Assembly (NCBI GenBank): GCA_045046875.1
Contig: JASFYY010000055.1
Span: forward strand, 1-64,000
Direction of reading: 5' to 3'
DNA length: 64,000 nucleotides
From: Verrucomicrobiota bacterium
Lineage (GTDB): Bacteria > Verrucomicrobiota > Verrucomicrobiia > Verrucomicrobiales > DEV007
Position 1 is the stretch's first letter, and each line of letters begins with the position of its first letter. Below the pieces are notes generated by a model, which saw nothing but the letters and a program-made list of their open reading frames with translations, was not told the origin of the DNA and made no database searches. This document shows, piece by piece, positions 8,951-21,067 of this stretch. A program made the translations under genes and the position numbers.

Positions 8951-9038
8951 TTTTTGGCACTACTCAAAAAATAGTGGGAGTGGTGAGCTTTGCCCTGGAG
9001 TGATGGGTGCTCAGAGCATAAAGCTGATCGAGATCAGC

Positions 9039-10316
9039 TTAGGGTTTGTTAGCGGTGTTTTCGTCACAGCAAGTACTGTCAGCTAGGGTTTTCCCGGCAG
9101 CATGTTTCTCATTACCTTCGGTGTAGCGAAAGGTTTGAAACTGGCCTTTGATGAGGACGGGGGTGGCTTGATCCAAGGGCAATACGGCTTTTTGATGGTG
9201 ATTGTTTTCCAGCCAAGTGACGAGCAGGGCGGAGTTGATATTATTTTTACCCTTTGTATTAGCTTTTTGATTAGTCTTAATTTGTTGCCATTTGACAACG
9301 GCGCGGGCGCGATTGCGGTGCTGCAGGATGTGCAGGGTCTGATCGCCCACTTTCACCTCAGCTGGCAGGGAATCGATTTGCTGACTGCTGAATTGGTTGT
9401 TTTTGTGATCCCAGATGAAAGCGGTCAGGTGACCGATTTGATCGTCATTGGCACTGAGCAGCAGCCGGTTTTTATCATTGCCCACTAGCTGGATCGGATC
9501 GCGGGCGGTGAGGCGGGATTGGCTGGCACTGTTTCCTTTCAAGCGGGTGGCCGGGAGCAGGGCGGGGTGGATGCCTTTGGTGAGTTCGGGGTGATCGAGG
9601 AAGCAGAGATGACGCTCGATGGTGCCTTCGTCGGAAGCCAGAGTGACTTCGATGGCACGGTTGGCGAAGTCGCTGTCGTTGCTCTCTTTGATGTTGCCGT
9701 TCTCTTCCAGTAAAGCGTGTTCGTAGCTGCGGATATTTTTGATAGTCCAACTGGGGAAGATTTCAGCTCCTGCTTCGGGTAGCGCATAAAAATGTCCCTG
9801 GTGTTCAAATTGAACCGTATCTTTGGCGGCCTTTAGCCATTGTCCGGGAGCTGAGGGCTGGCTGCCTGCAGGCAGCACACGAACTTGGACGCCGAGCTCT
9901 TCAAGCAGGCCGGCGGGGCCGTCCTCTTTGCTTTGGTAGATCCATTGTTGTTGTTTTGCTTTTTCATCAGCAGGGGCATTTTTTGTCCAACTGATTTCGA
10001 CCGCATGGGATTCCTTGTTACTTTGATTATCGGTTTCCGGCATGGCCTTTGCCTGCGGCCAGTATTCGAGGATGCGCAACTCGGTATCGGCGAGCTTCAG
10101 ATTTTGTCCAAGATGATCCGCTGTCACGCTGTCTGCTACGGAGAGCCCTTTGTCATCATGAGTCAAGAGTTCGATTGTCACATCAATGGGATCATGACCT
10201 TCTTCTACCAGTGACGTTTTTTGCGTGCTTTTGTTGCAAGATAAGGAGAAGAGGATTGCGGGTAGGCATGACAGAAATAAACGGGTGGTAGCAGAGAGGT
10301 GGATTGGAGCATTCAT
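9039..10316 (-). CDS. Hypothetical lipoprotein, last gene of the multiheme operon
   Basis: Lipobox-like SLSC after a hydrophobic stretch; starts 11 bp after the upstream gene. Confidence 0.6.
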   Translation of the reverse strand: MNAPIHLSATTRLFLSCLPAILFSLSCNKSTQKTSLVEEGHDPIDVTIELLTHDDKGLSVADSVTADHLGQNLKLADTELRILEYWPQAKAMPETDNQSNKESHAVEISWTKNAPADEKAKQQQWIYQSKEDGPAGLLEELGVQVRVLPAGSQPSAPGQWLKAAKDTVQFEHQGHFYALPEAGAEIFPSWTIKNIRSYEHALLEENGNIKESNDSDFANRAIEVTLASDEGTIERHLCFLDHPELTKGIHPALLPATRLKGNSASQSRLTARDPIQLVGNDKNRLLLSANDDQIGHLTAFIWDHKNNQFSSQQIDSLPAEVKVGDQTLHILQHRNRARAVVKWQQIKTNQKANTKGKNNINSALLVTWLENNHHQKAVLPLDQATPVLIKGQFQTFRYTEGNEKHAAGKTLADSTCCDENTANKP

Positions 10317-10327
10317 GGTGTGAGGCC

Positions 10328-10810
10328 TTATTTTAAAGAATCGGCAATTTGACAGAGTTGTTGATAGTAGTCTTCGGTTTCCATCCCCATCAGGGTGGCT
10401 CCGAAGGCCTCGGCAGCATCGGGTCCGGCGATGTCGCCGTAGTTGACGCAGACGAGGTGGTAGGCGACGAGCATTGGCAGCACCGCATCGTTGCCCTCGA
10501 AAGCCGGATGAACCGTCAGGATAAAACCACTGGTTGGATTGCCGTTTTCTACCGCCTGGATGAAAGCGAACTCGCCTTCCAGTAGGGGGTCGTTTGCAAA
10601 AACCAGCCGCAGTGGGTAACGCACAAAACGGCGGTCTTCGAGCAGGGCGTAAAGCGACTCAAGAGGCAGTCCGGGCAATAGGCTGATGCCGTATTCCTGT
10701 CGTGCCTCGTAAGCCTTGTCTGCAGCATGCTCGACGAGGGAGCGTTTACCGTCTTCCTCGGTCGGGCGGATGCGGGCAGGCATACGGTTGGGTTTAGCAG
10801 CAGCGGGCAT
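10328..10810 (-). CDS. Hypothetical protein in the multiheme operon
   Basis: 160 aa ORF tightly packed between the octaheme gene and the lipoprotein gene; protein-like composition. Confidence 0.7.
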   Translation of the reverse strand: MPAAAKPNRMPARIRPTEEDGKRSLVEHAADKAYEARQEYGISLLPGLPLESLYALLEDRRFVRYPLRLVFANDPLLEGEFAFIQAVENGNPTSGFILTVHPAFEGNDAVLPMLVAYHLVCVNYGDIAGPDAAEAFGATLMGMETEDYYQQLCQIADSLK

Positions 10811-10823
10811 GGTTTTGTCGGGT

Positions 10824-12287
10824 CTATTTGTTGTAGCGCGCTTTAAATTCCGCCGAGGCTTTTTCCCGGGCAGCTTTTTCTTCGGGATCCATGTCGCCGA
10901 TGAACCAGCGGTGGTTTTCGCTCTGGAGGGTTTTGTCGAGCACTGCCTGCAAGTTCTGGGCGGCTTTTTGTTTTTCCGGATCTTTATTGGCCATTCCTTT
11001 TTCGATCAGGTGCTCGAGTTCGGGGATGAACTTCACGTAGAAGTGCTGGGCGACTTCATAGGTGCCGTGCCAATGGGTGTAGTCGGGTCCCATCATCGAT
11101 GCGCCGTGGCGTGCGCGACGACCTTCGTGATGCCAGATCTCGAACCAGATGAAGTCGAGTTTGTTGCCGAACTTGATGGGTTTCATCAGTGGTTTGGCGG
11201 CGGCATAGAGGGCGAGTCCCGGTTTGGCAAATTTCTCGTTGTAGAGTTCGATCAGCGAGTCGTATTGCACATACCAGTTTTTCACCCAGTTTTCACTGTG
11301 GCAGTTTGAGCACACGTCCTGCATGTTGGAGCGTCGTTGGGTCCATGGGACATCTTTGCCGGGCAGTCCCATCTTGGCATCCGAGACTTCGGGTCTGACC
11401 GAAACGGCAGGCCGGTTGTTCCACGAAATGCGCATGCCGACGTCATGGGTGACCGCTTGGTTTTTGGTCTGCGACATGTGACAAGTGGCACAGGTGGGGG
11501 CGGCTGAATAATCCTCGCCGACGATCCACTTGGGAGAGTCGAGATTCATTTTGTTGATATTGGCAAAAAAGGCGATGCCGTGCTTAGACTCTTCGTAGAT
11601 TTCCTTTTGCGGATGGTCGGGGCCCATGTGGCATTTGCCGCAAGTGTCCGGATGGCGTGCCTGGGCAGCTGAGAATGTGTGGCGACTATGGCAAGCCGAG
11701 CAGGACCCCTCCGAGCCGTCCGGGTTGAGTCGGCCGATACCGGTATTGGGCCAGGTGGCGGGATCGAGCAGCCCTTTGCCACCTTCGAGCACTTTGACTT
11801 CGGTGCCGTGACACTGCCAGCAACCGTTGACGGCGGCAGCAGAAACTCCACCGGGGAAGGCTTTGGTTTTCATGCCTTTGTTTCCTTCGACGACTTCGGC
11901 TAGCACGTTGTCGAGTGAGCCGAGGATGCGTCCTGCCTTGGAGTGATGGGATCCTGCGAATTCCTTGACTTCCTGATCGTGACAGCGAGCACAATCCTTG
12001 GGTGTGACCAGCACGGCGATGAGTTCTTCGTAGTGAGTGTAAGCATCTTTGTCGCCTTTTTCTGCGTGATGGCATTCGAAGCAGCTTACCTTGGCACGGT
12101 AGTGTTTACTTTCGCCCCATTGCTCATATAAAGCAGGGTTAAGTTTCTTGTGACATTCGATGCATTTTTTGCTTTGCTCGCTGACTTTACTGAGTCCAAA
12201 CGGACCGGCAAAAGTATTGTGAATCCCGAACAGCAAAACGAGAGCTGTGATCCACGGGATGAGTAGGGATGTTCGGTGTGTTTTCAT
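10824..12287 (-). CDS. Octaheme cytochrome c, hydroxylamine oxidoreductase (HAO) family
   Basis: Eight CxxCH motifs (CIECH, CFECH, CARCH, CWQCH, CSACH, CGKCH, CATCH, CSNCH); MGPDHPQKEIYEESKHG; WHHEGRRARHGASMMGPDYTHWHG; Sec signal; AAAGGA RBS before the ATG at 12287. Confidence 0.9.
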   Translation of the reverse strand: MKTHRTSLLIPWITALVLLFGIHNTFAGPFGLSKVSEQSKKCIECHKKLNPALYEQWGESKHYRAKVSCFECHHAEKGDKDAYTHYEELIAVLVTPKDCARCHDQEVKEFAGSHHSKAGRILGSLDNVLAEVVEGNKGMKTKAFPGGVSAAAVNGCWQCHGTEVKVLEGGKGLLDPATWPNTGIGRLNPDGSEGSCSACHSRHTFSAAQARHPDTCGKCHMGPDHPQKEIYEESKHGIAFFANINKMNLDSPKWIVGEDYSAAPTCATCHMSQTKNQAVTHDVGMRISWNNRPAVSVRPEVSDAKMGLPGKDVPWTQRRSNMQDVCSNCHSENWVKNWYVQYDSLIELYNEKFAKPGLALYAAAKPLMKPIKFGNKLDFIWFEIWHHEGRRARHGASMMGPDYTHWHGTYEVAQHFYVKFIPELEHLIEKGMANKDPEKQKAAQNLQAVLDKTLQSENHRWFIGDMDPEEKAAREKASAEFKARYNK

Positions 12288-12300
12288 GTTAGTTTCCTTT

Positions 12301-13563
12301 CTATTGATAATTGATGGCTGTGAGATCTTCTTCTTTGGCAAAATCGAGGCGTCCTCCGTCAAAGGAATCGGCATCGACGGTGAGGCGACCACTGAGCACG
12401 GGTACGGTGATGCGGACGAGGATGGTGTAGATGAGAAATCCGGTGGCCCAGATGCCGAGCGAGACCAGGGTTTCGTTCAGGGTGGGGGTGTATTCGACGA
12501 TTTCGCCGAGCGGGGTGGGGATGAATCCGGGGATGATGAGGCCCATGCCTTTTTCGATCCAAATGCCGATGAAGAGCATGGCGCAAGCGACGTTGAGGAC
12601 GCGCAGGCGACGACTGATGGGGAGCACCAGAACGATCAAAGCGACCATGTTGAGTATGAAAGAAGTGCGGATCCAGGGGACAAGTGCGGATTTGCCATCC
12701 AGACCGAGATAGAGATACTTGGCCGAGGCGACGTGCACGGAGTCGGTGTAAAATTCGGTGAACCATTCACTTCCGAGCAGGAACATATTGATGAACATTG
12801 CCACGGTGACGATGCTGCGCAGGGTGAGCAGGGCCTGGCGTTCTACTTTCCAGTGGGTGAAATGACGAATCATCTGCAGGGTAATGATGAGCAAAGCTGG
12901 TCCTGCGGCGAAGGCTGAAGCAAGGAATCGCGGGGCGATGACGGCAGAGTTCCAGAAAGGTCGTGCGCCCAGACCGGAGTAGAGGAAGGCGGTGACGGTG
13001 TGGATGCTGATCGCCCAGGCAATGGCGATGAAAACAAAAGGCACGACAAAATTTTTGTGCGGTTTGCGTTTGTTGTAAGCACAATAAATAAGGTAGCCCG
13101 GTATGTGCAGGTTGAGCAATAAATAGCCGTTGAGAGCAATTACGTCCCAAGTCAGGATCGATACTGGGAAATGGAAGCGCAACATCATGTGATGCATTTG
13201 GTCGGGACGACCGAGATCGACGACGATGAAAAGCAGGCACATGATGATGGCTGAAACGGCCAGCAGTTCGCCGAAGATGACCAAGTGATGCAGCTCTTCG
13301 CGTTTGTAGATGTAAACGGGAATGACCAGCATCACCGCCGAGGCAGCGACGCCGACCAGGAAGGTGAAGTTGGCGATGTAGACTCCCCACGAAACTTGAT
13401 CAGTCATTCCGGTGGTGCCTAGGCCGTAAACATACTGACGGCAGTAGGCGTTGAGGCCGACCAGGGCAATGGTGAACAGAAAGCCTAGCCACAGGTGGTA
13501 TTTCCATCCGCCGACAAAGCTGCGTTTAAAACAGCGATAGAGAAATTTGAGGTAGGCCTTCAT
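12301..13563 (-). CDS. NrfD/PsrC/DsrP-family quinol-interacting membrane subunit
   Basis: About ten TM helices; VSWGVYIANFTFLVGVAA, VDLGRPD, SIHTVTAFL. Confidence 0.9.
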   Translation of the reverse strand: MKAYLKFLYRCFKRSFVGGWKYHLWLGFLFTIALVGLNAYCRQYVYGLGTTGMTDQVSWGVYIANFTFLVGVAASAVMLVIPVYIYKREELHHLVIFGELLAVSAIIMCLLFIVVDLGRPDQMHHMMLRFHFPVSILTWDVIALNGYLLLNLHIPGYLIYCAYNKRKPHKNFVVPFVFIAIAWAISIHTVTAFLYSGLGARPFWNSAVIAPRFLASAFAAGPALLIITLQMIRHFTHWKVERQALLTLRSIVTVAMFINMFLLGSEWFTEFYTDSVHVASAKYLYLGLDGKSALVPWIRTSFILNMVALIVLVLPISRRLRVLNVACAMLFIGIWIEKGMGLIIPGFIPTPLGEIVEYTPTLNETLVSLGIWATGFLIYTILVRITVPVLSGRLTVDADSFDGGRLDFAKEEDLTAINYQ

Positions 13564-14621
13564 GAGGTTTGGGGACTTTTGTCGGCCATGGCTTCATCGG
13601 AGCCGGGGTAACGTTCGTCGAAGTAATAAAAAAACCGTGGCAGGGTGCCGACTTCTTCTTTGAGCACAAAAACGCGATTGGTTTTGAGTATCTGCGAAAC
13701 CTCGCTGTTGGGGTCGAGCACGTTGCCGAATTTGCGTGCGCCAGTGGGACAGACTTCGAGACAGGCAGGCATTTTGCCTTCGCGTGTGCGGTGCAGGCAG
13801 AAGGTGCATTTTTCCACCACTCCCTTGGGGCGTGGGCGGTTGGAGAGGTAGGCCATGTCGGGATTGAGATCCTTTTTTGGCAGTTTGGGTTTGGTGAAAT
13901 TAAAACGTCGAGCCCAGTAGGGGCAAGCGGCTTCGCAATAGCGGCAACCGATGCACCAGTCGTAGTCGATGACGGTGATGCCGTCGGCTTCCTGCCAGGT
14001 GGCTTCTACCGGGCAGACTTTGACACAGGGAGGTTGGGCGCATTGGTGGCATTGCACCGGCATGTAGAAGTGATCGTTGTCGGGAACCTTGGGGCGATCA
14101 TAGTGATGGTTGCCTTTTTCGATATTAGTGGTGCCACGTGGCATTTCAAGCACGCGGATGTATTGGATTTCGGGGGAGCGACTCTGGTTGTTTTCCGCCA
14201 CGCAGGCGTGCACACATTTGCGACAACCAATGCAGCGGGTCAGGTTGAGCGCATAGACAAACTCTACTCCGTCCATCGGTTTGATGTCCCGGATATCGGG
14301 GCGTTGATCAAAGCGTTTTTCGACTTCGCCGGAGATGCGGGCAAGTGCTTTCTGCATCTCCTGTGCGTCCATTTCCTTGTAGTGTTTCTGGAGAAATTTT
14401 TCGACGGTGGGGAGGTCTTCGCTTTCCAATTCCATCAACGGTTTGAGCGCAGCCATGGCTGCGGCAAGACCGCCAGCGGCGACCGCCGAGGTGCGCAAAA
14501 AGCTGCGCCGGGTGGGAGCGGAACCGCTACCTCCACCTCCACAAGAGCCTCCCGCACACCCTCCCTGCGGAGACGATGTCTGTTTGTCCTGATCGGAGTG
14601 CTGTTTATTTTCCGGGTTCAT
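13560..14621 (-). CDS. Tat-exported 4x[4Fe-4S] ferredoxin (NrfC/DsrO-like)
   Basis: TRRSFL twin-arginine motif; CIGCRKCVHAC, CHQCAQPPCVKVCP, CIGCRYCEAACP, CTFC...PACLEVCP; ATGA overlap with the NrfD-like gene. Confidence 0.92.
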   Translation of the reverse strand: MNPENKQHSDQDKQTSSPQGGCAGGSCGGGGSGSAPTRRSFLRTSAVAAGGLAAAMAALKPLMELESEDLPTVEKFLQKHYKEMDAQEMQKALARISGEVEKRFDQRPDIRDIKPMDGVEFVYALNLTRCIGCRKCVHACVAENNQSRSPEIQYIRVLEMPRGTTNIEKGNHHYDRPKVPDNDHFYMPVQCHQCAQPPCVKVCPVEATWQEADGITVIDYDWCIGCRYCEAACPYWARRFNFTKPKLPKKDLNPDMAYLSNRPRPKGVVEKCTFCLHRTREGKMPACLEVCPTGARKFGNVLDPNSEVSQILKTNRVFVLKEEVGTLPRFFYYFDERYPGSDEAMADKSPQTS

Positions 14622-15339
14622 TTTTCGACGAATCAGAAGGGTGCGGGTCTTGGTGTTTGGGTGTATTTAGGAAAAGTAGTGGGTTTTTGTTGTGGCTCTG
14701 ATGGAGGGAGGAAGTGTCGTTTTCCTGATCACCCATGCGCAGGGTATGAGGGCCGGGCAGGGGTGGGATCGGATCAAAGCGCGGGTGATGCGGGTCGTGA
14801 CACTCAGTGCAGCTGAGTTTTTTTGACTGACCCATTTCGGCATTCCAGAAACCGAGGGTTTTGCCATGGATGCCTCGTTGCCACTGTCGATAGAGCGGGC
14901 CGTGGCACTGAGCGCAGAGCTGGGAGGCCTGCGCGTAGTCGAAAGTCTTGTTATCGAGGGTAGCCAATTTGTTGCGGTCCTTGGCATCGTGGCAATTCAC
15001 GCAGCGGGTGTTGATGCCGTGTTGCAGTTTGATATTGGCGTGTTGGTGGAGGTCAGTGGAGCGGGGTTGGGAATCGATGATGATGTGGCAGTCCATGCAG
15101 GTGCGTTCGAAGCCGTTGACCATGGCTTTGGGAGGATCGGATAGCGGCGTGAAGCGTGGGGCGGGGTTGATATCCGTAGCGCTGATGGTGATCGGATCCG
15201 GAATAGGGATGCTGCTTCCTGTTGGTAAAAAGAGGAAGCCCACTGCGGTGGCAAAAAAAACCAAAGTGAGCCCCCAGATCACCGGGCGATCCAGTGATTT
15301 GGTAGTTTGATTTTTGTTTTTTTGTGGGAATTCACTCAT
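14605..15339 (-). CDS. Membrane-anchored tetraheme cytochrome c
   Basis: N-terminal TM helix; CMDCH, CVNCH, CAQCH, CTECH; overlaps the start of the ferredoxin gene. Confidence 0.88.
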   Translation of the reverse strand: MSEFPQKNKNQTTKSLDRPVIWGLTLVFFATAVGFLFLPTGSSIPIPDPITISATDINPAPRFTPLSDPPKAMVNGFERTCMDCHIIIDSQPRSTDLHQHANIKLQHGINTRCVNCHDAKDRNKLATLDNKTFDYAQASQLCAQCHGPLYRQWQRGIHGKTLGFWNAEMGQSKKLSCTECHDPHHPRFDPIPPLPGPHTLRMGDQENDTSSLHQSHNKNPLLFLNTPKHQDPHPSDSSKNEPGK

Positions 15340-15652
15340 CGAAGTAATCTGTTTCCAACATGGGTTACGGCTACCAGTGGCTTTGAGTTGAGTTTGGATG
15401 TTTTAAAATTGGAGAGATGGAAAGGAAGTGGCAAAATGCGGGCAACCCAGCACAAGATAAGCTCAGAAGGGGGGGCAAGGATGATGATGGGGCCCTTTTT
15501 GGAAGTGATGTGTTTCAGTGATTCGGTGATTTATGGTCGTGAAGGGAGGATCCCCTTATTAAAAAGTTCTTGTGTGTGGTGGATGTTGTTGTATTATGGG
15601 GGGGCGAGGGAATTATTCGGGGGAGTCGAAGCACTTAGGAAAGGGATCAATT

Positions 15653-16738
15653 ATGAGGAAGATACGGGAATTTTTGTTGGGGCCGGAGGGGCAGACGAAT
15701 TATTATCATGTGGTGAGCCGGACGACGGGACGGGATATTTTGTTTGAGGATGATGAGAAGGAAACTTTTCGGATTTTGATGCTCAAACAGTTGAAGTTCA
15801 GTGGGCTGCGGGCACTGGCATGGTGTTTTATGGGCAATCACTTTCATTTGTTGTTGGAGGTGCCGGATAGGGAGTTGGCGACAGAGGGGTGGAAGGATGA
15901 GGATTATATTAAGCGTTTGGAGGTGTTTAAGAATGAGTGGTCGAGTAAGTTGGTGTTGGATGAGGTGGAGATGTTTAGGGGGAACGGGGCGGATGAAAAG
16001 GTGAGCGAGATTGCGGAATCGGTGAAGGCGCGACTGTTTGATCTGTCGATGTTTATGAAGGAGTTGAAGCTGAAAATGACATTGGCTTACAACCGGAAGC
16101 ACGACCGAGTGGGGACTTTGTGGGAGGGGCCATTTAAGAGCTTATTATTACAGGGGGCGGGTGAGGGTGAAAGTAGTGATGCTCTGCGGATGGTGGCGGC
16201 TTATATAGACCTGAATCCGATTCGCGCGGGGCTGGCGCAGGAGCCGGAGGGATACCGTTGGTGTTCGTATGCGGCGGCGGTGGCCGGGGTGCGTGGGGCG
16301 AGGCAGGGTTTGTGTTATGCGGTGACGGGGCGTAGTCGGGTGGCGTGGAAAAAGGTGGAGCAGGAGTATAGGTGTTTGCTGTATACCAAAGGGCAAACGG
16401 TGAAGACGGGTCAAAACCTCCGTCGCCAAGGCTATGGCGGTCAAGCGGTGGGCGGTTATGATAAAGGTAAGGGAGGGTTTAGTCGGGCGGAGATCAAAGA
16501 GGTGTTGGAATCAGGGGGGAGATTGTCGGTGGCGGAGGCATTGAGATGTAGGGTGAGGTATTTCACTGATGGGTCGGTGTTGGGGAGTCAGCGTTATGTG
16601 GATGATTTTTTTGAGAGCAAGAGGGAGTGCTTTGGCGCGCGGCGTAAGGATGGAGGAAGGCGGATGCGTGGAGCGCAGTGGGGGGAACTGCGGGTATTGC
16701 GGGATTTGAAGGTGGATGTGGTGTGCAAAGGGGGCTAA
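15653..16738 (+). mobile_element. REP-associated tyrosine transposase (RAYT, Y1/HUH family)
   Basis: YYHVVSR, MGNHFHLLL (HUH), GTLWEGPFKS, AYIDLNPIRAGL (catalytic Tyr), YRWCSY. Confidence 0.85.
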
Positions 16739-19205: not shown

Positions 19206-19838
19206 ATGATGAAAAATGCAGTCAAGTATCCGCGCACACCTCATTTGCCGTGGTCTCCAGGGGTAAGTAAGGATGATGTGTTTGCCGAAAATTTACAGAT
19301 TTTTGAAGGGCTAGAAGTTGTGGTGACTGAGAAAATGGATGGTGAAAATACCAGCTTATATAGAGATGGTATGCACGCACGCTCCATTGATGGTCGGGTG
19401 CACCCGTCGCGTGATTGGGTGAAGCGTTGGCATGCGGGAATTGCCCATGAGCTTCCGGATGGGTGGAGGTTTTGCGGAGAGAATGTGTTTGCGCGGCATT
19501 CGATAAGTTATGAAAACCTGGCGCATTATTTTTATTTATTTTCGGTTTGGACGGATGAAAATGTTTGCTTGAGTTGGAGTAAAACCGAGGAGTGGGCGGA
19601 TTTATTGGCATGCGCGAGACCTCATATTTATTATCAGGGCAGGTGGGATGAGGCTTTTATTAGAAATATTGCTATCGACGAGTCCAAGGAGGAAGGTTAT
19701 GTGGTGAGAACGTGTGAAGGCTTTTCTTTTGCTCAATTCGGAACTCATATAGCTAAGTGGGTGAGGCCGAATCACGTGCAAACGGATCAACATTGGATGC
19801 ATAGTAAAATAGTTCCTAATAAGCTGAGGCAATCATAA
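19206..19838 (+). CDS. ATP-dependent RNA ligase family protein
   Basis: KYPRTPHLPWSPG, nucleotidyltransferase motif I EKMDGEN, CGEN, EGYVVR, AKWVR. Confidence 0.85.
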   Translation: MMKNAVKYPRTPHLPWSPGVSKDDVFAENLQIFEGLEVVVTEKMDGENTSLYRDGMHARSIDGRVHPSRDWVKRWHAGIAHELPDGWRFCGENVFARHSISYENLAHYFYLFSVWTDENVCLSWSKTEEWADLLACARPHIYYQGRWDEAFIRNIAIDESKEEGYVVRTCEGFSFAQFGTHIAKWVRPNHVQTDQHWMHSKIVPNKLRQS

Positions 19839-21067
19839 TGAATCGTAAAGGTGAGGGGGCATTATTGATTGATAGAATCAAGGAGGGGAATAAAACGACT
19901 TTTTCTGAACTGAAAAATGCCTTTTTAGCGATTTTCCCTTTGCTGGGTGAATTGGATGAAACTCAACAAGACTCTGAATGGCATGGGGAGGGGGACGTGG
20001 CGATTCATACGTCGATGGTGTTGGATGAAATATGGAAGGATGTGGCAGGAGCCTCACCGGAGCACCGGGTGGTGTTGGTTTTGGCGGCTTTGTTCCATGA
20101 TATAGCCAAGCCATTGGTGACCCGTGAAACTGAAGTGAGGGGCAGGATGCGTATTACAGCGTCACGTCACGCAGAAAAAGGGCGGAACTACCTAGCTTTA
20201 CGTTTGCCAGTGTTAGGATTGAGTGGGGAAATGCAGGATCGGGTTCTTGCCCTTGTTGGGTATCATCATCACCCGCGTAAGTGGGTGCTAAGCGAGGCGG
20301 ATGGTGCTTCGTATGCTCAATTAGCTCGGATGGTAGATTTTACTTCGATAATAGCTTTGGAAAAAGCGGATTTACGTGGGCGAATTTGCCCGGATTCAGA
20401 ACAACAGTTGGAGCAGTTAGAATGGTTTAAGCTTCAGGCTGACGAATATGAGATAGGTTCGTGGAGGGATGAAATATGGTTGTCTGCAATGCAAAATGCT
20501 TTTGCTGGTAGGAATGAATCTTTTCATCGTCATGCAGCTGCCCACGGAAGAAAAGACTTTGAAGAAGGGTGCATTAAATCTGTAGAAGAGGCTGTTGCCC
20601 GGGCTTACCAATTACGTGATAACCCTGCAGTGCTAACCATTTTGGCCGGCCCTAGTGGGTCAGGTAAGTCGTCTTGGGTTGAAGGATTTGCAGCCGACGT
20701 TGACGTGGTATCGCTCGATGACCTTCGTCAACGCATTGCGGGGAAACGGAGTGATCAGTCGAAAAATGGCCAAGTGATGCAGGCGGCAAAAGAAGAATTA
20801 AAGGTTTTTCTACGCGCAGGAAAATCCGTGGTGTGGGATGCAACGAATATTCGTCGGGATGGCAGGTCTTGGGTTTCCCGGCTAGGTTTTGATTATGGTG
20901 CTTACGTGCGCATCGTGGCTTTTCGCAACACTGTGGATACTCTTTATCAAAGAAATAGGAAAAGAGAGGAATCGATACCAAAAGCAGTGCTGACTAAGCA
21001 AATTGATGCTTTTGAGTGGCCGACATTGGATGAATCTCATGAGTTAATAGTTGCAGATACTCAGTAG
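19838..21067 (+). CDS. HD phosphohydrolase-polynucleotide kinase fusion (HD-Pnk-like)
   Basis: WHGEGDVAIHT, LFHDIAK, YHHHP, ADLRGR (HD domain); GPSGSGKS P-loop, SLDDLR, WDATN, RNRKR lid; TAATG coupling to the ligase gene. Confidence 0.85.
   Translation: MNRKGEGALLIDRIKEGNKTTFSELKNAFLAIFPLLGELDETQQDSEWHGEGDVAIHTSMVLDEIWKDVAGASPEHRVVLVLAALFHDIAKPLVTRETEVRGRMRITASRHAEKGRNYLALRLPVLGLSGEMQDRVLALVGYHHHPRKWVLSEADGASYAQLARMVDFTSIIALEKADLRGRICPDSEQQLEQLEWFKLQADEYEIGSWRDEIWLSAMQNAFAGRNESFHRHAAAHGRKDFEEGCIKSVEEAVARAYQLRDNPAVLTILAGPSGSGKSSWVEGFAADVDVVSLDDLRQRIAGKRSDQSKNGQVMQAAKEELKVFLRAGKSVVWDATNIRRDGRSWVSRLGFDYGAYVRIVAFRNTVDTLYQRNRKREESIPKAVLTKQIDAFEWPTLDESHELIVADTQ

Follow-up and report, generated by a model that had tools for sequence, protein, structure and literature searches.

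An operon joining a DsrOP-type quinol module to an octaheme HAO-family cytochrome without the cross-link tyrosine in Verrucomicrobiota: a putative NrfA-independent nitrite reductase

A six-gene operon at positions 9039..15339 of a 64,000-nt stretch of DNA from a Verrucomicrobiota bacterium (DEV007; contig JASFYY010000055.1 of assembly GCA_045046875.1), hereafter the window, encodes an octaheme cytochrome of the HAO family together with a tetraheme cytochrome c, an iron-sulfur (FeS) protein, an NrfD-family membrane subunit, a 160-amino-acid (aa) protein, and a lipoprotein (Table 1). On balance, we favour the interpretation that the five conserved genes encode a quinol-fed respiratory nitrite reductase independent of NrfA, with the 160-aa protein acting as a chaperone of the FeS signal sequence. 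Quinol would be oxidised at the DsrP-like membrane subunit, and the electrons would run via four [4Fe-4S] clusters and the anchored tetraheme to the periplasmic octaheme, whose uncross-linked heme 4 would reduce nitrite, with ammonium a likelier product than free NO. The 160-aa chaperone would hold the twin-arginine signal of the FeS subunit, and the lipoprotein may be a local helper of heme attachment. We infer the direction of the reaction, its substrate and product, the electron path, and the co-transcription of the operon.

A scan of the GTDB genome set with the octaheme gave at least 585 confirmed stretches, the best 80 of which (66-99% identity) were used for locus counts; a protein search returned at least 8000 scored candidates for the octaheme clade. 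Most of these 80 loci come from Verrucomicrobiota and Planctomycetota; Myxococcota and other groups make up the remainder. The order cytochrome-FeS-NrfD-HAO was kept in 69 of the 80 and the five genes were contiguous in 51, so the arrangement is far beyond chance. Gene by gene, 75 loci carry NrfD, 71 the FeS protein, 70 the tetraheme, 65 the 160-aa gene, and 6 the lipoprotein gene; since this last gene is full-length in only five loci, the conserved unit consists of five genes. Among the 70 loci with at least 3.6 kb of upstream sequence, 65 kept the order, with the HAO directly behind NrfD, whereas the HAO stood alone in four and the module was divergent in one. The nearest locus (L001), from a Verrucomicrobia bin, carries all six genes at 93-100% identity, in support of the taxonomic assignment of the host. 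A synteny check across genomes of the Planctomycetes-Verrucomicrobia-Chlamydiae (PVC) group had been proposed beforehand in a reading of the window made from sequence alone, and conservation turned out to be strong both in that group and in other phyla. The clade is patchy: among 301 high-quality genomes of the phylum, the octaheme was found only in the host.

The octaheme is probably of the reductive type, since none of the 80 clade members has a tyrosine at the cross-link site. This site was placed by counting in the Nitrosomonas europaea HAO sequence to Tyr467, which by both role and number we take to be the heme cross-link residue of P460; it lies in a G-G-W-T-Y motif, and the alignment was bridged via Ruegeria HaoA and Ignicoccus IhOCC. 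The corresponding residue in the octaheme is either His405 or Trp406, according to how a one-residue gap is set. Position 405 is His in 79 sequences and Gln in one, Trp406 is present in all 80, and Tyr occurs at neither position, whereas Ruegeria HaoA and four verrucomicrobial oxidative-type HAOs retain the cross-link Tyr. Tyr403 was ruled out as the cross-link residue, being off register and replaced by Ile in 6 of 80. An Asp-His pair follows heme motif 6 in N. europaea HAO (Asp267/His268), where it is presumably catalytic; the pair found after heme motif 6 in the octaheme (Asp224, His225) is invariant in all 80 sequences, as are Arg292 and Met398. Arg292 stands at the N. europaea Tyr334 column and could bind an anion near the putative active site; Met398 stands at the His459 column, where IhOCC also has Met.

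The best PDB sequence match of the octaheme was IhOCC (4QO5, E 4e-52; N. europaea HAO, E 2e-19), and 4QO5 was also the top match by fold; the model behind the fold search was built without hemes, was mediocre (pLDDT 69.5), and served that search only. All eight PDB sequence matches were HAO, HDH, or IhOCC. In a 29-row tree, which held 21 of the 80 clade rows and only NapC-linked and oxidative HAOs as outgroups, the octaheme clade (97/93) and its NapC-linked sisters stood apart, with long branches, from the five HAOs of oxidative type (100/100); the organism names of rows L065, L069, L073, and L077 were not used. The comparison with oxidative HAO suggested by the sequence-only reading thus set the octaheme apart from that type, both in the tree and by the missing cross-link Tyr. 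Having eight CxxCH motifs, no CxxCK site, and a tetraheme as partner, the octaheme also departs from the pentaheme NrfA and NrfB of NrfABCD. Database names for clade members are inconsistent, being either 'hydroxylamine dehydrogenase' or 'cytochrome c552 nitrite reductase'. Assayed HAOs without the Tyr have nitrite-reducing but no hydroxylamine-oxidising activity (PMC8042395), and IhOCC represents the P460-less branch (PMC9250108); papers cited by identifier are drawn on here from excerpts of their text.

The genes ahead of the octaheme encode a putative quinol-oxidising module. In the tetraheme, all four CxxCH motifs and His100, His107, His158, and His184 are invariant (70 sequences), and the protein presumably shuttles electrons from the FeS subunit to the octaheme. 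Arg38, Arg39, and Phe41 of the FeS protein are likewise invariant (70 sequences); its best NCBIfam family is DsrO, at 179 bits against a cut-off of 200, and its PDB matches include ArrB (6CZ7, E 2.5e-34) and NrfC/PsrB (2VPW, E 1.8e-32). The membrane subunit, which would hold the quinol-oxidising site, has eight hydrophobic segments in a crude scan and exceeds the cut-off of 350 bits for the DsrP hidden Markov model (HMM), whereas the NrfC and NrfD HMMs fall far short (108 against 378 and 29 against 348, respectively). The sequence-only reading had described an HAO head on an NrfCD/Qrc-like module; the reductive octaheme and the syntenic module hold, but HMM scores place the module nearer to DsrOP than to either NrfCD or Qrc.

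The idea that this module is a dedicated HAO partner was not borne out, as seven loci (L113-L116, L119, L121, and L123) carry the cytochrome-FeS-NrfD module, along with the gene of the predicted chaperone, without HAO. In the three whose neighbourhoods were scanned (L114, L115, and L119), the neighbours are DmsE-like heptahemes with adjoining unclassified open reading frames (ORFs) of 740-770 aa, large multiheme/cytochrome b proteins, or an ExtP-like cytochrome b, and such copies are a possible quinol link for extracellular electron transfer. By description, these loci recall the verrucomicrobial porin-cytochrome clusters of PMC5615132, an excerpt of which does not mention NrfD. The NrfD subunit is approximately 570-580 aa long in L114-L116 and has an acetyltransferase-like insertion in L115. 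More distant octahemes use NapC/NirT in place of the module.

Nitrogen-oxide genes recur around the operon. napA lies within 8 kb in 22 of the 80 loci, and in several of them napD, napA, and a tetraheme gene are inserted directly behind the HAO, between it and the 160-aa gene. An FNR/DNR-type box (TTGAT-N4-ATCAA, at most one mismatch) was found upstream in 9 of 68 loci (shuffle mean 0.7). Nap adjacency and these boxes in relatives support the nitrogen-oxide respiration that had been proposed from the sequence, while the sulfur-oxyanion option offered alongside it gained no support. A count of the stricter pattern TTGAY-N4-RTCAA (14 of 66 loci, shuffle mean 0.06) was set aside as evidence because the pattern was picked after the first box count. 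An alginate-export-family porin stands beside the operon in 22 of L001-L080, as often as napA (e.g., L034:10028-11485).

The genomes of 50 of the 80 carriers (L002-L051) were searched for related functions. napA was detected in 15 and a NarG/NxrA-type enzyme in 19, with one or the other in 27; NrfA-like proteins were found in 2, NirK in 2, NirS in 2, and Nor-like proteins in 12. Known nitrite reductases were missing from 24 of the 27 nitrate-reductase carriers, and 18 of those 24 had no Nor match, which favours ammonium over free NO as the product. In a control sample of 301 genomes of the phylum, NrfA-like proteins occurred in 53 and napA in 4, 3 of which also have NrfA.

Several observations weigh against a respiratory nitrite reductase. 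The contrast between carriers and controls is not matched, because the carriers are metagenome bins from several phyla and of unknown completeness, the controls are near-complete Verrucomicrobiota, and kin among them are not independent. The NarG matches may include NxrA, and at the thresholds applied neither nitrate reductase was detected in 23 of the 50 carriers. The literature covered contains no assayed member of this octaheme clade. The host copy of the operon has no FNR/DNR box upstream and no adjacent nap, and the octaheme fills no gap there, since the host already has NirK, qNOR, and a nasA-nirA-narK cluster; it would instead form a further branch alongside partial denitrification, a point against its being a simple replacement. 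Moreover, the substrate does not follow from the presence of the module, which is also found without HAO.

The same wiring could also feed an octaheme that stops at NO, replacing NirK/NirS in partial denitrification. Kustc0458/7 of Kuenenia, which lacks the Tyr, yields NO (PMC8042395), an NO-forming role has been proposed for octahemes of this sort in Phycisphaerae (PMC11266412, which names Poriferisphaera corsica as a carrier), and Nor matches were found in 12 of the 50 carriers against 0 of 29 controls. We nevertheless regard this alternative as fairly unlikely: the 18 carriers described above combine a nitrate reductase with no Nor match, the host has NirK already, and the octaheme matches IhOCC (E 2.5e-64) much more closely than it does Kustc0458 (E 9e-23). 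A detoxifying reductase of NO or hydroxylamine, dumping quinol electrons with little role in growth, would agree with the reduction of both compounds by HAOs without the Tyr in vitro (PMC8042395), with the Rrf2 regulators near 9 of the 80 loci and Crp-type regulators near 4, and with the lack of hcp in the host and of a detected nitrate reductase in many carriers. A five-gene membrane module, dedicated maturation genes, and repeated nap insertion would suit respiration better, and we consider detoxification unlikely.

A complex acting on a sulfur compound (sulfite, tetrathionate, or polysulfide) was raised as an alternative in PMC5276818, and the DsrP HMM score above the cut-off, the DsrOP ancestry, the MccACD precedent, and an invariant Arg292 that could bind any anion are points in its favour. 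It is very improbable in our view, as no sulfur genes recur in the 45 largest neighbour clusters while nap does, dsrA was found in 0 of 51 genomes searched (no positive control), and neither MccA nor OTR is among the eight PDB sequence matches of the octaheme. It is also quite improbable that the module is a general quinol-cytochrome c hub, with the octaheme either a loosely coupled client or an oxidative enzyme passing electrons from hydroxylamine or hydrazine to quinone. Such a hub would explain the seven loci with the module and no HAO and the 4 of 70 loci (those with upstream room) with HAO and no module, but in 65 of the same 70 the HAO lies directly behind NrfD, the cross-link Tyr is missing, Tyr403 is Ile in 6 of 80, and amoA was not found in the host in a search that had no positive control.

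Within the preferred reading, a quinol-fed nitrite reductase, the 160-aa protein would serve the FeS subunit. We hold with reasonable confidence, on the strength of structural modelling, that it is a pseudo-protease chaperone for twin-arginine translocation (Tat) that grips the twin-arginine signal of this subunit. It forms a distinct family without a name, of which 317 representatives were collected at E 0.001. Its gene was not found in four HAO-only genomes, whereas it was present in five genomes of the phylum without this HAO, four of which hold an intact cytochrome-FeS-NrfD module beside the gene, and three genomes with two modules carry two copies. A C-terminal NapD-like domain was detected in 4 of 150 relatives (E 1.5e-5 to 0.028 within that set). 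The gene thus tracks the FeS module rather than the HAO, and in occasional members a NapD-like domain is fused to its product; a Tat chaperone is therefore likely.

The NapD-like fusions prompted a complex prediction with FeS residues 28-340 and the 160-aa protein. The complex scored 0.61 and the best control 0.02; the 0.61 mark was reached by 116 of 157 solved pairs and 2 of 215 mismatched pairs. At least 43% of the contacts were common to the runs, and partner pLDDT was at least 83. In the modelled complex, FeS residues 38-45, which contain the twin-arginine motif, lie in a cleft formed by Phe81, Tyr117, Ala133, Tyr149, and Cys153, and a second contact patch involves FeS residues 204-206 and 221-236. 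Of 17 conserved residues, nine belong to the 39-residue interface (hypergeometric 0.011, a value not independent of the alignment used).

The AlphaFold2 (AF2) model of the 160-aa protein had a pLDDT of 93 and resembled IrrE/PprI, CapP, minigluzincins, and a PrpR domain at Z 6.5-8.2, matches that are singly near background and consistent in kind. Zincin matches overall had Z 4-8.2 (the top value being near typical background) and a root-mean-square deviation of 3.2-4.6 over approximately 100-116 aligned residues, and the Atlas structure neighbours were IrrE/M48 clusters at a template-modelling (TM) score of 0.51-0.54. None of 150 relatives has the zincin motif HExxH; in the helix of the cleft, Tyr117 is kept (93%) and the residue after it varies. 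No general signal peptide is apparent: the N-terminus was hydrophobic in 3 of the 150, two of which resemble miscalled fusions. Profile comparison with PDB sequences gave no match, Foldseek gave none at E 0.001, and 65 members of the family had no match to Pfam's redox enzyme maturation protein (REMP) families at E up to 1.

Some findings count against this chaperone role. The NapD-like fusions lie below the Pfam cut-off, are related to one another, and could reflect gene adjacency; three of the four are 41-52% identical and so may represent one event, and a metagenome scan for the fused form returned no locus. Six module-bearing bins (G308, G328, G354, G355, G357, and G358) had no match to the 160-aa gene, nor did G347, where the FeS homologue is more distant. 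An apparent fusion of the FeS protein and the 160-aa protein in G069 may be a misassembly, as the remainder of the FeS gene begins another contig.

We know of no comparable complex. The literature covered, outside which lie supplements and some subscription papers, contained no zincin-type Tat chaperone and no characterisation of this complex. The 160-aa protein resembles the REMPs NapD, TorD, DmsD, and NarJ in being small, cytoplasmic, operon-encoded, and a predicted binder of the twin-arginine signal of one redox subunit. It differs from them in its zincin-like fold and lack of sequence match, and its client would be an FeS subunit rather than a Mo or Ni enzyme. In an excerpt of PMC13673990, REMPs are presented as serving Ni-Fe and Mo enzymes, and zincins are not mentioned. 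The predicted chaperone would bring a pseudo-protease fold into the range of Tat chaperones.

The sixth gene, listed beforehand alongside the other five, does not encode a core subunit: full-length homologues are confined to L001-L005, and the sixth locus has only a weak ResB match. The lipoprotein is a lineage-restricted derivative of the periplasmic domain of ResB, a component of system II cytochrome c maturation, as judged from profile comparison. A profile of six sequences, all of which keep the lipobox Cys, matched the ResB proteins that occupy this place in the operons of L019 (E 5e-20), where CcsA comes next, and L018 (E 5e-14). The homology covers only the periplasmic part of these two proteins, here placed on a lipid anchor; unlike ResB/CcsB, the lipoprotein has no transmembrane segment and no PF05140 match. 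Its Atlas structure neighbours were ResB clusters at TM 0.45-0.48, under the bar, and no BLAST match was obtained with the host's own ResB-like ORF. It may perhaps have a role in heme attachment.

A four-gene arrangement matching this one has been published before. A Hao-like/NrfD/4Fe-4S/cytochrome locus beside nap was described in two NrfA-less ammonifiers in the 2017 Thermosulfurimonas study (PMC5276818), which proposed nitrite reduction for it, and the four-gene locus and the proposal recur in PMC9676032. That locus likewise has a Hao-like multiheme protein, an NrfD-family subunit, a periplasmic 4Fe-4S protein, and an anchored cytochrome c in one row; compared by description, it differs in that its function is hypothesised only and that the excerpts mention no fifth or sixth gene. 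An excerpt of PMC8076601 lists NrfD complexes, including the octaheme MccACD, none of them HAO-headed. In MccACD and NrfABCD, a multiheme head similarly receives its electrons from a 4x[4Fe-4S] protein plus an NrfD-like subunit (PMC8076601), whereas the head here belongs to the HAO clade, rather than being MccA or pentaheme NrfA, and the shuttle is an anchored tetraheme. IhOCC, epsilon-Hao, and the pMHC of Maribeggiatoa and cable bacteria share an octaheme HAO fold without the cross-link Tyr, reduce nitrite, and often lie beside nap, but none of the donors known or proposed for them is an NrfD module, and the loci of the sister clade studied here use NapC/NirT. A cable-bacterium preprint (bioRxiv 10.1101/2020.02.22.960823) tied a related enzyme to ammonification and, in the part drawn on, found no quinol link. 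By HMM, the FeS and membrane subunits match DsrO and DsrP of DsrMKJOP best, yet no DsrM, DsrK, or DsrJ is encoded among the six operon genes, and unlike QrcABCD and ACIII the operon has no molybdopterin-oxidoreductase-like subunit; the host's ACIII-like cluster lies on another contig (C46). Hao clusters of Caldithrix and Deferribacter (PMC5317091, PMC6896113), which by their excerpts have other partners, and the ACIII-like NrfD cluster of PMC10732223 were set aside as different arrangements.

The new parts would be the predicted pseudo-protease Tat chaperone and the portable module, with the lipoprotein as a ResB-derived add-on. Tentatively, and as a possibility that we rate below even, a portable DsrOP-type quinol module with its own dead-zincin chaperone may be coupled to a Tyr-less HAO across hundreds of genomes from the PVC group and beyond, and elsewhere to porin-cytochrome-like clusters. 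The HAO form could then be a widespread energy-conserving route from nitrite to ammonium, missed by nrfA surveys and misread as nitrification by annotation pipelines. Ammonifier surveys reportedly count nrfA and onr. If the clade ammonifies nitrite, nitrogen retention by PVC heterotrophs would be undercounted and 'hao' matches in them misread, and the module would supply the quinol link lacking for the related pMHC enzymes.

ORF coordinates, gaps, and motifs bore out the earlier description of the operon as six co-oriented, tightly spaced or overlapping genes of the types listed in Table 1. The intergenic gaps are, in order, -17, -4, +13, +13, and +11 nt. Family scans of the six genes agreed with that description also in finding no Mo catalytic subunit, cycAB, or NrfA, and no haoB/cycAB neighbours; the fifth and sixth genes matched no Pfam or NCBIfam family at E 0.01. 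The octaheme start was assigned to the ATG at 12287, which is preceded by a purine-rich stretch resembling a ribosome site and yields the 487-aa protein of the database; a GTG at 12392 was dropped, the longer frame overlapping NrfD. Promoter and terminator scans of the operon were at chance level (4 against 4.0 expected and 7 against 9.0).

Table 1. Genes of the octaheme operon in the window.
Feature	Coordinates	Strand	Evidence
Membrane-anchored tetraheme cytochrome c	14605..15339	-	4 CxxCH, one N-terminal hydrophobic/transmembrane helix
Tat 4x[4Fe-4S] protein, DsrO/NrfC/PsrB type	13560..14621	-	TRRSFL twin-arginine motif, four ferredoxin groups with 16 Cys in all
NrfD-family integral membrane subunit, DsrP-like	12301..13563	-	PF03916 E 4.8e-42; DsrP 424 bits
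Octaheme HAO-family cytochrome, Sec-type signal, 487 aa	10824..12287	-	8 CxxCH, PF13447 E 3e-24
160-aa cytoplasmic protein, zincin-like, without HExxH	10328..10810	-	AF2 model, complex prediction
Lipoprotein, 425 aa, ResB-derived	9039..10316	-	Lipobox Cys, profile match to ResB

The host genome is 94.7% complete. It encodes NirK, qNOR, cbb3- and aa3-type oxidases, the ACIII-like cluster, system II heme maturation, and the nasA-nirA-narK cluster, which is assimilatory; searches for NrfA, NarG, NosZ, and Hcp in this genome found none. At G000:C54:12819-15797, nirK, with a C-terminal cytochrome c, is followed by two small genes, and an FNR/DNR-type box stands at C54:12569. The qNOR-like protein (G000:C149:44870-47359) has 829 aa, is longer than solved qNORs, and is approximately 35% identical to the copies of most carriers. 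A further cluster (G000:C20:8604-18824, L081) encodes a divergent twin-arginine Nap/Nas-family molybdoenzyme of 872 aa, below all cut-offs, together with a four-heme cytochrome, three NapG-like genes, and two or three NapH-like genes; it is a candidate for an unusual periplasmic nitrate reductase.

Around the operon, a 20-base palindrome (window 9021-9040) marks the operon end ahead of a diacylglycerol kinase gene; it is not present in the near-identical L001, where a 934-aa ORF lies between the two genes. Just upstream, a divergent gene resembling REP-associated tyrosine transposases (window 15572-16738, plus strand) is found in both the host and L001, and a similar gene occurs at L005:3459-4571. 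Two adjoining ORFs at window 19206-21067 (plus strand), which we take to resemble an RNA-ligase-family protein and an HD-domain/kinase protein, are a candidate RNA repair pair.

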